Under the pieces are notes generated by a model, which saw only the letters and a program-made list of their open reading frames with translations, did no database searches and was not told where the DNA came from. 64,000 bases of DNA, taken from the NCBI GenBank assembly GCA_039191605.1, contig JBCCXL010000018.1:47521-111520 (forward strand), given 5' to 3'. The position numbers and the translations under genes were made by a program. Shown here one piece after another: positions 57,260-64,000 of the stretch. Numbering within the stretch: position 1 is the first letter of the stretch; every line of letters begins with the position of its first letter. Origin of the DNA: Acidobacteriota bacterium. GTDB taxonomy: Bacteria; Acidobacteriota; Thermoanaerobaculia; Multivoradales; JAHZIX01.

Positions 57260-57663
57260 GTCGGCGCTTCGATCGGCATGCAGGGGCTCCCGGCAGCGAA
57301 GATCCGCTGGCCCGGGATCGCCGCGGTGCGCCGCCGTCGCTGCATCTTCGCCTCGAATCCCTGGTGGTAGAGGGGGTGGATACCTCCGGCTGGGGTTCCG
57401 AGGCCCACGACGAGCTCGCCCACGCCCTGCATCAAGAGCTGGTTTCGCAGCTACAGTCGGGGAGCATCGTCGCGGCGTCGCTGCAGGCGGTCCTGGCGGA
57501 GAAGAGCGCCTGGCACCTGCCGGCGGCCCAGCTCCCGGCTTCCGCCGCCGGTCCCCCGGGCCCGAGGAGCATCGGCGTGGCCCTGGCGCGCTCCGTTACG
57601 AGTGGTCTGGGTTCTGGTGATCTGGGTTCTGGTGATCTGGGTTCTGGGGGGCTTAGTCGATGA
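57253..57663 (+). CDS. Small eCIS-associated hypothetical protein
   Basis: LHLRLESLVVEG...ALHQEL...IGVALARSV pattern recalled from eCIS loci; overlaps both neighbours; GSGDL 15-bp repeat near the end. Confidence 0.7.
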
Positions 57664-59303
57664 AGACTGCCGCGCTGGAAGCCAACGTCGCGGAGCCGAC
57701 CTTGGAGCGGAAAGCTCCGGAGGACGAGCAGAGAGCGCTGCGGGGGGATCGCGCGGCAGGGGGACGAGCGGCTTCCGGGCTCGCCTCGGGAGCGTTGCAC
57801 CTGGCCTCAGTACCGGTGCTGCCGCCCAGTGGCGGTGCTGGGGGAGCGGTGCCGGCGGTGCAGCGGGCGAAGAGAAATCGCAAGGTCCCGGCGCGCAAGC
57901 GGCGGGCGCAGAAGAAGGCGGAGCGTCGCCGCCGTCGTCAAGCGAAGGCGGAAGGGAAGCCATTTCGCAACGCTAAGCAGCGGCGCCGAGACCGCCAGCA
58001 GCAGGCGCAAACTCGAGCGCTGAATCGGGCGAAGAATCGACCTTCGCGGGCGCAGCGTCGCGAGATGGCCCACCAGCGGGATATGGAGGCGATTCGCCGG
58101 CAGGCAGAGGAGAAGGCCAATATTTGTCGACGCTTCTTTCTGACCAGGTCCAGGAGCGCAAGATCAATTCCGGCGCTGCGCTTTCCCGCCTTGGTGGATC
58201 AGGTGATGACGGCGGCGGGCCTCGATGATCTGACGGATCTGACGACGATACCGGCTGCTCTCGCGGAGGCCATCATGTTTTACCGGCAGGCTTTAGAACG
58301 GGCTGAGCTGAGCCAGCCGGAGTTCTCACGCTCGATCCGCAGGGAGAAGGTCGAGAAGAAGATCCGATTCGCCCCGAGCCCCGCTCGGCCTACGAGCACG
58401 GCGGCGCGCCGGGAGCGAAGATCTCGGCGCAGGGACGAGCAGGGCGAGGTCGAGGAGGCGGCGACTCGGCTGATCACCGAGATCTGCGCCTACGATCCCT
58501 TTGGCATCGAGACCCGCCTCGGGGACGTCCTGCTCGAGGCCTCCGCGATCACCGGCAGCGAACGGCCCGATCCCGAGCGTTTCGCCTATGCCCGGGGCAC
58601 TAGCGGTGATCCGATTCCCATCACCTGGTACAAGGCTCCCGGGGCCTACCCTCCGCTGACGGTAGACAAGAGCGTCGTACCCCGTTTCGGCGCCTTTACG
58701 CTGGTCGATGATCAAGTCTCGGGGCGTCGCCGCTATCGATTCGGCGTCGAGGGGTCCAACCGGCCCCGGGTCGGCATGTCGCTGCGTCGCACGGCCCATA
58801 GCAGTGATCGGTCCGAGCAGCGGGAGCTCAATCAGGTGATGAATCGCGCCATCGATCGGGGAGAGCTGGAGATCAATGGTGATCCTAGGGCTCGCCTCTC
58901 TGAGGCCGGTGGCTTCGACGGCGACCACGTCAAAGATCTCGGCTACGGCGGCCTGGACTCCATCGAGAACTTCTGGCCCCTCGACGCCGCGACCAACCGC
59001 GCGGCGCTGACCTACAATCGCAACTACCTGGTCAACTTCCTGGACTCCACGGGGCAGGCTCGCCAGGCACCCATCGGCGTGCTGATCGGGAAGCACTTCG
59101 TGGTGGAGGACTTCTACAACCCTCTGGTGAGAGGGGTTCCAGAGGACTCGGGAACGGCCGCTGCGGGGGCGAAAGGAGGGGGAGGATTGAGTGGCGGAAA
59201 GTCCAAGGCGTCGCGCTCCTCCGCGAGTCAGCGGGGAGTGGTGATCAGCACTGGCTTCTCGGATAGCGAGACCGATACTGAGAGCAGCAGCGATGAGTTC
59301 TGA
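57660..59303 (+). CDS. Candidate eCIS effector: leader, Arg/Lys tract, HNH-like domain (copy 1)
   Basis: DGDHVKDLGYGGLDSIENFWPLDAATN beta-beta-alpha-metal-like motif; ATGA coupling. Confidence 0.75.
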   Translation: MKTAALEANVAEPTLERKAPEDEQRALRGDRAAGGRAASGLASGALHLASVPVLPPSGGAGGAVPAVQRAKRNRKVPARKRRAQKKAERRRRRQAKAEGKPFRNAKQRRRDRQQQAQTRALNRAKNRPSRAQRREMAHQRDMEAIRRQAEEKANICRRFFLTRSRSARSIPALRFPALVDQVMTAAGLDDLTDLTTIPAALAEAIMFYRQALERAELSQPEFSRSIRREKVEKKIRFAPSPARPTSTAARRERRSRRRDEQGEVEEAATRLITEICAYDPFGIETRLGDVLLEASAITGSERPDPERFAYARGTSGDPIPITWYKAPGAYPPLTVDKSVVPRFGAFTLVDDQVSGRRRYRFGVEGSNRPRVGMSLRRTAHSSDRSEQRELNQVMNRAIDRGELEINGDPRARLSEAGGFDGDHVKDLGYGGLDSIENFWPLDAATNRAALTYNRNYLVNFLDSTGQARQAPIGVLIGKHFVVEDFYNPLVRGVPEDSGTAAAGAKGGGGLSGGKSKASRSSASQRGVVISTGFSDSETDTESSSDEF

Positions 59304-63068: not shown

Positions 63069-64000
63069 GCGCTCCTCTAGAAGCCGGAGCTGAGCTGGAG
63101 CAGACGCAGCTGCCGGGGGCCGTCCATCGCCAGTGGTCGAAGAGCATCGAGGCTGACTCCGCAGGCCCTCGCTCTCTCTCCGAGAGTCTGCTGCTGGCGG
63201 CGGTGCCGGTCACGCCGCCGGGCGGGGGTAGCCCACCGCCGGTGCAGCCGAAGCTCACCATGGACCGCCCCGGAGACCGCTTCGAGCGGGCGGCGGACGC
63301 CGCGGCGAAGGCGGCGCTGGCTATGCCGGTACCGGCACCGGCGGTCTCGCCTTCGGCCCTCGGCGACTCGTCATCTACGCCCGGCGTGCAGCGGATGTGC
63401 TCGAAGTGCGCCAAGGCGCTCTCTGGTGGTGGCGGGGAGCTTTGCCCCAACTGCAAGGCGAAGCTGGCTCGAGGGGAGAGCCTGACGGCAGAAACGGGAG
63501 CCCCCGGAGTCCAGCGGGAGGCCGAGGGCGCCGCCAGCGCCGGGGAAGTTCCCGCCGCCGCGGCGTCGGCAGTTCGGGGACTTTCCGGCGGCAGCCCGCT
63601 GCCGTCCTCGGAGCGCGCCTTCTTTGAGCCCCGCTACGGGGTAGATCTCTCGCCGGTGCGTCTCCACACCGGGCCGCCGGCGGCCTCCCTGGCCTCCCAG
63701 CTGGATGCCCGAGCTCTCACCCATCGCCAGCACGTGGTCTTCGGCGCCGGGGAGTATCGCCCCGGGACCAGCAGCGGCCGCGAGCTGCTGGCTCACGAGC
63801 TGGCCCACGTGGTGCAGCAGGGGGCAGTGTCGGCGGGTTCTGTGCCTGAGACTCCTACACCTGGAGTCCAGCGCCAGCCAGCGCCAACGTCAGGGCCGGT
63901 AGCGCTGGAGGCCGAGTCGAGCTCCCCCGAGGTGCAGCGGGTGAAATGCGACCCGGATAGCGAGCGAATCGATCCGGCGCTCAAAGATCTCGACCTCTAC
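63059..64000 (+). CDS. Second DUF4157 protein, truncated by the window edge (not in the ORF track)
   Basis: GGAGG SD, ATG 63059, frame open to the edge: MALSAPLE...VQPKLTMDRPG...CSKC...CPNC...AHELAHVVQQ...EVQRVKCDPD. Confidence 0.88.
   Translation, partial: MALSAPLEAGAELEQTQLPGAVHRQWSKSIEADSAGPRSLSESLLLAAVPVTPPGGGSPPPVQPKLTMDRPGDRFERAADAAAKAALAMPVPAPAVSPSALGDSSSTPGVQRMCSKCAKALSGGGGELCPNCKAKLARGESLTAETGAPGVQREAEGAASAGEVPAAAASAVRGLSGGSPLPSSERAFFEPRYGVDLSPVRLHTGPPAASLASQLDARALTHRQHVVFGAGEYRPGTSSGRELLAHELAHVVQQGAVSAGSVPETPTPGVQRQPAPTSGPVALEAESSSPEVQRVKCDPDSERIDPALKDLDLY

Follow-up and report, generated by a model that had tools for sequence, protein, structure and literature searches.

How does one injection machine pick out cargo proteins that are not all built alike? 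The question is raised by a stretch of contig C18 (GenBank JBCCXL010000018.1, positions 47,521 to 111,520, assembly GCA_039191605.1) from an Acidobacteriota bacterium whose genome comprises 6.4 Mb in 46 contigs. This whole stretch of 64,000 nucleotides is called the window below. It holds an operon for an extracellular contractile injection system (eCIS), starting at ~47.6 kb, and within that operon a row of cargo genes, A to D inside the window, E and F past its end, of which some encode a DUF4157 domain and others do not, while all share a related N-terminal leader. We conclude, at a probability of about 65%, that the leader of A-F is a system-specific loading (packaging) signal. This reading is founded on comparison (gene order, domain content, motif statistics, including conservation at the protein level and specificity to the locus, and recurrence in other genomes) and on the precedent of two characterised systems; that the ATPase of the locus carries out the loading is something we infer.

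The initial annotation had described four genes under one leader and had quoted a leader string from each. All four strings are present in the open reading frames (ORFs) A-D where it placed them, and the array proved to be longer, since E and F downstream add a variant of the leader and bring the genes to six in all (Table 1). The genes follow one another closely, with a 115-bp gap between A and B, a 4-bp overlap between B and C, a 10-bp overlap between C and D, and D and E abutting. Pvc16_N and AAA genes lie directly upstream, sheath and tube genes further upstream and spike and baseplate genes downstream; the cargo array therefore stands in the middle of the operon and not at its end. Scores against PF13699 (eCIS_core, the former DUF4157) are 96.5-101.5 bits for C, D, E and F, the cut-off being 22 (C, residues 193-268, E 7.9e-29; D, residues 180-255, E 2.8e-29), and HELAH..QQ, of the form HExxHxxQ, is present in each. 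A and B match neither PF13699 nor any other Pfam family at E<=0.01, match no NCBIfam family and have no HExxH, so that they are not members of the DUF4157 family; the description of two leader-bearing cargo proteins without DUF4157 was thus correct.

The leader is a motif of ~30 residues, L-x-L-A-[SA]-V-P ... P-x-V-Q, at residues ~40-70 of A, B, C and D. In a four-way alignment its invariant columns, in the numbering of A, are L46, L48, A49, V51, P52, P56, G62, P65, V67 and Q68, and in C and D it finishes in VQA/VQP instead of VQR. When the first 90 residues were compared by the Smith-Waterman method with 2000 shuffles, A against C gave a z of 5.0 with 0/2000 shuffles as high, and B against C a z of 6.2 with 1/2000; as high a score was reached by 2/2000 shuffles for B-D and by 11/2000 for A-D. 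Querying C against the 3,724 real N-termini of the genome returned, in order, D, E, C itself, F, B (fifth), one ORF of a second eCIS locus described below and A (seventh). The expression L.LA[SA]VP has 10 matches in 57,099 six-frame ORFs, four of which are A-D. A leader hidden Markov model (HMM), whose use the initial annotation had proposed, was run on this genome: built from the four sequences, it found A-D among the same 57,099 ORFs, then E at E=0.057, and nothing else.

The leader peptide is kept among A-D though codons differ at synonymous sites. When the paralogs A and B are compared, conservation is highest in the leader core (residues 36-70), with 71% identity, against 34% in the tip, 31% in the middle and 62% in the basic region as well as in the C-terminal domain; synonymous divergence (dS) between the two is 0.51 in the leader core and ~1.1-1.3 elsewhere. 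The coincidence is strengthened by the motif standing at an identical position in adjacent genes, and we conclude that the leader match, as judged by these comparisons, is modest but non-random. In an AlphaFold2 (AF2) model, made of residues 1-310 of C only, residues 1-68 have a predicted local distance difference test score (pLDDT) of about 40-51. A Sec or Tat signal was also considered and ruled out from the sequence, the hydrophobic run being ~8 residues long and starting near residue 46 behind a polar stretch.

The genome carries two eCIS loci, one on C18 and the other on contig C10 (C10:16978-50228, minus strand), where six tandem DUF4157 cargo genes are found; of the 13 PF13699 genes of the genome, C18 has four, C10 six and contig C7 three. 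The N-termini of the C10 cargo are basic, of RR[RI]LRS type, and none of the 15 matches to the core leader pattern falls in a C10 cargo gene. The ATPases of the two loci are 49% identical in the AAA module (residues 448-667), whereas their first ~440 residues do not align, so the N-terminal part of the C18 ATPase is, by this alignment, unrelated to that of its C10 counterpart. That each machine has its own leader type and its own ATPase N-terminal part is what would be expected of a system-specific signal-receptor pair, and we infer that leader and ATPase are paired in each locus.

The initial annotation had also suggested that the motif could reveal orphan effectors elsewhere in the genome. 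Three DUF4157-related genes at C7:106347-125926 (L031-L033; PF13699 45-48 bits) bear this out in part. At the N-terminal offset of the leader their proteins have, by eye, L-A-x-[IV]-P-I-x-P-P-G ... V-Q-R-L-S, and they have a matching V-Q-R-L-[SK] behind the DUF4157 domain. The looser pattern LA.[VI]P[VIA]..P.{2,24}VQ[RAP] has exactly seven matches in 8.73 million six-frame residues, namely A-D and the three C7 genes; no CIS domains were found in the nine ORFs neighbouring the latter. In a haloarchaeal contractile injection system (CIS), DUF4157 proteins encoded off-cluster are secreted in a sheath-dependent manner (PMC11566945), which provides a precedent for orphan DUF4157 cargo. The C7 proteins are candidates for orphan cargo of the C18 machine.

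A leader common to DUF4157-less and DUF4157 cargo is recognisable in two other genomes. One is G123, where N-x-x-W-Q-[ST]-L-A recurs at ORF positions 38-43 in each of three neighbouring ORFs; PF13699 is present in two of them, while the third, of 266 aa, is DUF4157-less and has a weak Aspzincin_M35 match below the cut-off. A Pvc16_N gene lies 28 kb upstream of the three. In Tumebacillus avium the shared leader is of the form LQ[LM]QR..GNQA, with ...I-L-Q-L-Q-R-T-I-G-N-Q-A-V... in a DUF4157-less toxin and ...L-L-Q-M-Q-R-A-Y-G-N-Q-A-T... in a DUF4157 protein encoded about 22 kb from a Pvc16_N gene. L-x-L-Q-x-x-x-G-N-x-A is a common N-terminal element among DUF4157 representatives.

Several observations weigh against a loading signal. 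The likeness between the A/B and C/D leaders is short and lies within sequence rich in P, G and A, and because A/B and C/D are paralog pairs the match amounts to effectively one independent comparison. An HMM built from C and D only ranks A as the top non-training match, yet at E=0.13, and one built from A and B only has neither C nor D among its top 10. E and F have a diverged variant of the leader (LLETV...), which in F is without V-Q. When the N-terminal 192 residues of C were searched against same-family genomes, 0/5 matched, so there is no close relative by which to gauge conservation, and A had only three non-self matches in the large protein search given below; the same search of same-order genomes gave weak matches in 8/55, mostly to the PGD-helix module that follows the leader. 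On C10 the DUF4157-less ORF at C10:24480-26084, which has HEMVH and an OmpA-like end, begins R-S-G-I-R-S-V-L ... P-R-I-Q-R and resembles its neighbours' leaders loosely at best, and in G019 a DUF4157-less ORF beside three DUF4157 cargo genes has no leader shared with them by eye. The pattern that unites A-D with the C7 proteins was written after those proteins had been seen and so demonstrates specificity and not discovery; the four-sequence HMM does not recover them.

We nevertheless favour a loading signal, which would operate as follows. The six tightly packed genes A-F are the cargo array of the eCIS, set behind its cap and AAA+ ATPase. The leader, in a presumably disordered N-terminal region, would be recognised by the ATPase of its own locus (55124-57259, the presumed reader), and this ATPase would feed the cargo into the tube lumen. 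DUF4157 would be an optional module behind the signal, present in C-F and absent from A and B. The latter have in its stead a basic stretch and, at the C-terminus, a toxin-like domain that may be a nuclease of HNH type. As the toxin domain of A and B occurs fused to DUF4157 elsewhere (see below), the two have the appearance of cassette variants, with the first V-Q-[RA] junction as the point of joining.

The closest precedent is AlgoCIS of Algoriphagus machipongonensis, in which loading needs the N-terminal domain (NTD) of the cargo, DUF4157 can be dispensed with and the NTDs resemble one another within the system (bioRxiv 10.64898/2026.05.27.728243). Its cargo proteins Cgo1 and Cgo2 (see also PMC8894135) have a disordered NTD, then DUF4157 and a variable C-terminal domain, an arrangement that C-F, with a putatively disordered N-terminus, resemble. 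The C18 array differs in that one leader stands over DUF4157 and DUF4157-less cargo, in six genes plus possible orphans; its leader also holds a defined sequence motif, and the likeness to Cgo1/2 is one by description. The Photorhabdus virulence cassette (PVC) offers a second precedent, with disordered signal peptides of 50-70 aa that are loaded via Pvc15 and stay uncleaved (PMC11495950). As in PVC and the antifeeding prophage (Afp), the N-terminal tag here is carried by effectors encoded downstream of the ATPase; PVC tags fall into sequence groups and their loading is ATPase-dependent (PMC11495950). PVC effectors, however, are without DUF4157, and the leader motif described here is unrelated to the PVC motifs quoted in the available text of that paper.

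C-F also resemble the known DUF4157 polymorphic toxins (Zhang 2012, PMC3482391; Geller 2021; Danov 2024, PMC11297309) in their HExxHxxQ core, its N-terminal position, their variable C-termini and the lack of adjacent immunity genes, while A and B stand outside the family. For the domain itself, Zhang 2012 proposed an autoproteolytic releasing peptidase (DUF4157/PVC-metallopeptidase), Geller 2021 a helper in loading, release or maturation, and Danov 2024 a helper acting in cis or in trans. The ideas of autoproteolytic release and of action in trans are therefore already in print as speculation. What the available parts of these papers describe includes neither a flanking [VIL]Q[RK] nor an upstream leader motif, and literature searches, whose scope did not extend to supplements, found no report in print of [VIL]Q[RK] bracketing DUF4157.

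This short motif is the second element common to the array. The four P-x-V-Q-R repeats that the initial annotation had counted in each DUF4157 protein of the window were confirmed, at residues 123, 164, 281 and 299 of C and at four matching places in D. Its statement that the payload begins right after P-x-V-Q-R in every protein holds for C-F, where alignment places the end of the constant part at an invariant P279-x-V281-Q282-R283, right behind which E/F part from C/D; in A and B the motif marks only the start of the basic region. Across the 15 cargo proteins of the genome (10,770 aa), VQR was observed 27 times with 3.2 expected and P.VQR 17 times with 0.2 expected, with P-values that are overstated because the cargo proteins are paralogs. 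A [VIL]QR lies 15-78 residues past HExxH in 12/13 DUF4157 proteins of the genome, and its context is lineage-specific on either side of the domain ([AS]P.VQR on C18, VQRL[SK][IL] on C7 and R[VL]QRQ on C10). Around the V-Q-R sites, as in the leader, the peptide is kept while the DNA varies. Short peptides of this kind, at which a constant part meets a variable toxin, are the VENN of CdiA and the DPxGL of self-cleaving Rhs proteins; P-x-V-Q-R resembles them in its place at the constant/variable junction, but further copies of it lie upstream of that constant part's domain, and DUF4157-less proteins have it too.

We found the same bracketing throughout the wider family. A phmmer search with residues 1-310 of C matched 60,942 cluster representatives at E<=0.001, and many of the best 150 of these align from query residue ~59-66 (V-Q-A-K-L-T-M-D-R-P-G-D on), the leader being excluded. 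The best 150 matches less C itself gave a sample of 149 proteins, many of them with more than one DUF4157 domain, which by the way it was drawn is biased to relatives of similar N-terminal build. In this sample [VIL]Q[RK] occurs 918 times, compared with 232 in the reversed control, and P.[VIL]Q[RK] 168 times, compared with 17. Relative to HExxHxxQ, a [VIL]Q[RK] is found at +9..+80 for 188/309 sites (control 26/309) and at -150..-85 for 192/300 (control 23/300), whereas in the domain body (-84..0) it is found for only 13/311 (control 29/311). At least one flanking copy is present in 144/149 proteins. A test for covariation of the upstream and downstream flanks in single-domain proteins had no power, with 4 proteins qualifying and 1433/5000 shuffles reaching the observed value. 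We conclude that [VIL]Q[RK] is a family-wide punctuation of which [AST]-P-x-V-Q-R is the local form, flanking DUF4157 and marking the start of the variable toxin. Its likeliest role, which we put forward tentatively and at clearly less than even odds, is that of a recognition or cleavage site of the DUF4157 zincin.

A protease-like domain that is bracketed by one linker motif, with a copy at the toxin junction, looks as though it carries self-processing sites. Put in full for this locus, the proposal is that the DUF4157 zincin cleaves at [AST]P-x-VQR, so excising itself, freeing the toxin in cis and removing the leader of A and B in trans, much as the initial annotation had supposed. We regard it as plausible but doubtful, the support being circumstantial. 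Family-wide, copies of the motif stand on either side of the predicted protease and are scarce in the domain body, its flank context is lineage-specific on both sides, and the third site of C falls exactly at the constant/variable junction of C-F. A, B and the DUF4157-less C10 ORF each have P-x-[VI]-Q-R in their first ~80 residues. In the AF2 model of C (residues 1-310; 56 aligned sequences, mean pLDDT 68), confidence is high for helix 78-92 and residues 175-270, and linkers of low confidence hold the leader and each of the four V-Q-R sites. An autoproteolytic releasing peptidase is also what Zhang 2012 (PMC3482391) predicted.

On the other side, no experimental proteolysis by any DUF4157 was found in the available text of the papers reached by our literature searches, mutation of HExxH left the toxicity of Cgo1 unchanged (PMC8894135), and AlgoCIS still loads cargo that lacks DUF4157 (bioRxiv 10.64898/2026.05.27.728243). 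PVC signal peptides stay uncleaved (PMC11495950), though PVC has no DUF4157. The three sites of C upstream of the domain have no obvious use for release, other lineages place [VIL]QR inside the leader motif itself (LQLQR..GN), and the DUF4157-less cargo of G123 is without [VIL]Q[RK] behind its leader.

A prediction of the complex between the DUF4157 core of C (residues 172-275) with its helix module (66-100) and the leader of A (36-85) is weakly supportive of cleavage in trans, with a score of 0.32 compared with 0.00 for the best of three controls; at least 74% of contacts are common to the runs, and the partner has a pLDDT of at least 51. The score mark used was reached by 58/80 solved complexes and 2/110 mismatched pairs, with passes at 0.60 or under coming from only 7/80 solved complexes and from both passing mismatches, and unlike the calibration our prediction used custom alignments and three chains. 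A weak pass of this kind is more often wrong than right unless the interaction was likely beforehand.

The broader claim, that [VIL]Q[RK] is family-wide the substrate site of a self-excising DUF4157 zincin, set between its own sites as a polyprotein protease is, that trims the leader and frees the toxin, in trans also for A and B, we consider unlikely. If it were true, motif and leader together would permit genome-wide calling of orphan eCIS cargo. Less likely again is that [VIL]Q[RK] is an uncleaved binding motif, gripped by the ATPase or the tube lumen, with the leader and the later copies holding or threading unfolded cargo. Such a role would suit several copies per protein, tens of residues apart in disordered linkers, the inclusion of the motif in the leader of another class (the G-N type), its place near the N-terminus of the DUF4157-less A, B and C10 ORF, and the dependence of AlgoCIS loading on the NTD and not on DUF4157 (bioRxiv 10.64898/2026.05.27.728243). 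It leaves unexplained, however, the precise bracketing of DUF4157 and the marking of the toxin junction, and the motif is absent from the DUF4157-less cargo of G123 and from P0004, a DUF4157-less relative of A and B.

Lastly, leader and V-Q-R might be mere traces of descent or cassette recombination among polymorphic toxins, with junction motifs like VENN in CdiA. The constant N-terminus with variable C-termini, the fusion of the A/B toxin domain to DUF4157 modules in other phyla and the lower dS of the leader core (0.51 compared with ~1.1-1.3), which could reflect gene conversion, would fit this, but it is very improbable given the synonymous differences among the A-D leaders, the varying DNA beneath the kept peptide at the V-Q-R sites, a leader core that is the best-conserved part of A and B beside segments at 31-34%, and the experimental requirement for such N-terminal regions in loading (bioRxiv 10.64898/2026.05.27.728243; PMC11495950).

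The cargo other than the leader is of polymorphic-toxin type, with a constant N-terminus, a variable C-terminus (as also in Zhang 2012, PMC3482391) and the same toxin domain on differing trafficking modules. There are no cognate immunity genes between the cargo genes, the gaps leaving no room for any; many PVC-type toxins are without immunity genes (Zhang 2012, PMC3482391). A and B run in the order variable tip, leader core, basic stretch (32/77 residues K/R in A, 31/77 in B), variable middle, conserved domain of ~200 residues and acidic Ser/Asp/Glu tail. Invariant in the alignment of the conserved domain are D-P-I-P-I-x-W, G-x-D-G-D-H-V-K-D-L and N-x-W-P-L-x4-N-R. Its invariant D-H...N...N pattern resembles the spacing of HNH nucleases and is compatible with such a fold. 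The C-terminal domain of A has no Pfam match even at E<=5 and no NCBIfam match, and an AF2 model of the A/B domain (4-sequence alignment, mean pLDDT 34) is unusable. The ESM Atlas has sub-threshold matches, by features to HNH (0.85), Tox-GHH (0.83) and Ntox15 (0.88), and by structure to clusters of HNH proteins (template modelling score 0.30-0.42). We treat the assignment of A and B as HNH-type nucleases, which the initial annotation had called HNH proteins, as a lead only. F reaches the Pfam HNH cut-off (23.9 compared with 21.4 bits) and E lies below it, the C-terminal part being common to both.

The A/B domain has few relatives. A search with A in a 5.8-billion-protein word index (8000 candidates scored, 'near' length range) returned only B, P0003 and P0004 besides A itself; P0003 has 656 aa and an N-terminal DUF4157, and P0004 has 439 aa and no DUF4157. 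Scanning one genome per species with the patterns DPIPI[TY]W[YF] and G[FE]DGDHVK, which mark the domain at residues ~300-515 of A (window 58560-59200), gave 11 loci, spread over Bacteroidota, Dehalococcoidia, Bacillota, Betaproteobacteria, Acidobacteriota and further groups. HExxHxxQ is present in the ORF in 5/11 and absent from 5/11, with 1/11 too short to judge. The genomes with the DUF4157-less form have Pvc16_N in 5/5 cases and PF13699 in 3/3 of those checked. The A/B C-terminal domain has the appearance of a polymorphic-toxin domain that is as yet undescribed and is associated with eCIS genomes.

The tails of E and F contain long low-complexity runs of Arg-Ser, Arg-Asp-Tyr and Arg-Gly-Gly-Tyr, like eukaryotic RS/RGG regions. 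Taken with the basic stretch of A and B, which resembles a nuclear localisation signal, they hint, speculatively, at eukaryotic and possibly nuclear targets.

For the model of C 1-310, Foldseek returned 4 PDB matches at E<=10, of which none had E<=0.001, and a PDB sequence search with an alignment profile gave a single match, at E 0.97. PF13699 at E<=1e-10 was present in 13/151 genomes of a sample of the phylum, a tally that includes the present genome (G000) and the unpublished G083, the latter being used for no other claim. Ahead of the domain in C-F, about 180 residues before HExxH, stands a helix with P-G-D-x-[FY]-E-x-x-A-D, in which E80, A83 and A87 of C are nearly invariant in 56 sequences and helix 78-92 has a pLDDT of up to 94. 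A similar module (…D-x-x-L-E-x-E-A-D…) lies ~20-30 residues past HExxH in L031-L033, in P0003 and in Tumebacillus/Duganella proteins (L062, L063, L066). The PGD helix may represent the zincin's third zinc-ligand helix, in two permuted positions.

Among the neighbouring genes, the place of the 916-aa ORF (51186-53936) in the operon would suit a tape-measure or tube-associated protein. The small ORF at 57253-57663 has zero Pfam or NCBIfam matches, C-terminal G-L-G-S-G-D repeats and a GC content at third codon positions of 0.72, slightly under the value for the neighbouring genes; it may act as an adaptor in loading, or not be a gene. One of the two Baseplate_J genes downstream encodes more than 1,871 aa with many Kelch repeats.

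Table 1. Positions of the genes and sequence elements of the C18 eCIS locus; coordinates are those of the window unless prefixed with the contig (C18), of which the window is part.
Feature	Position	Strand	Remarks
Sheath gene	47660-49579		eCIS structural
Tube gene	49835-50350		eCIS structural
916-aa ORF	51186-53936	+	between tube/baseplate-like genes and cap gene; no Pfam match
eCIS cap/terminator gene (Pvc16_N domain)	53929-55185	+	PF14065, E 6.9e-34
eCIS AAA+ ATPase, Afp15/Pvc15-like	55124-57259	+	PF00004, E 1.4e-24; winged-helix domain (WHD) variant PF22977
Small ORF, 136 aa	57253-57663	+	overlaps ATPase stop and start of A
Cargo A, 547 aa, DUF4157-less	57660-59303	+	ORF list, Pfam
Leader core of A, residues 36-70	57765-57869	+	ends PAVQR (V67-R69)
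Cargo B, 535 aa, DUF4157-less	59419-61026	+	paralog of A (49% identity)
Leader core of B	59524-59625	+	ends PTVQR (V67-R69)
Cargo C, 681 aa, DUF4157 protein	61023-63068	+	TTG start overlapping B stop
Leader core of C, residues 39-68	61137-61226	+	ends PPVQAK; pLDDT about 40-51
LTMDRPGDRFERAADAAA helix module of C, residues 69-96	61227-61310	+	widespread in DUF4157 proteins
VQR site 1 of C, residues 123-125	61389-61397	+	directly before CxxC...CxxC segment; low-pLDDT linker
VQR site 2 of C, residues 164-166	61512-61520	+	upstream flank of DUF4157
DUF4157/eCIS_core domain of C	61599-61826	+	PF13699; HELAH residues 259-263; pLDDT 88-97
VQR site 3 of C, residues 281-283	61863-61871	+	constant/variable junction common to C, D, E and F
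VQR site 4 of C, residues 299-301	61917-61925	+	
Cargo D, DUF4157 protein	63059-64000	+	66% identical to C; gene cut by window end, full length 677 aa, to C18:112609
Cargo E (L028), DUF4157 gene	C18:112612-115884		beyond window
Cargo F (L029), DUF4157 gene	C18:116066-119074		beyond window
Spike (Phage_base_V) and two Baseplate_J genes (L034)	C18:119000-131000		downstream of F, outside window

Shared loading tags are already established for PVC and AlgoCIS, and the leader itself is thus an expected feature in a new lineage. What the locus adds is one array in which a single leader stands over cargo both with and without DUF4157, and a natural experiment in the form of two eCIS loci within a single genome, each having its own type of leader, with ATPases whose N-terminal parts appear unrelated. 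The motif that brackets DUF4157 makes the idea of a releasing peptidase testable at the peptide level, for a domain whose function has been open since 2012, and if the cleavage-site idea is true it would allow better prediction of eCIS cargo.

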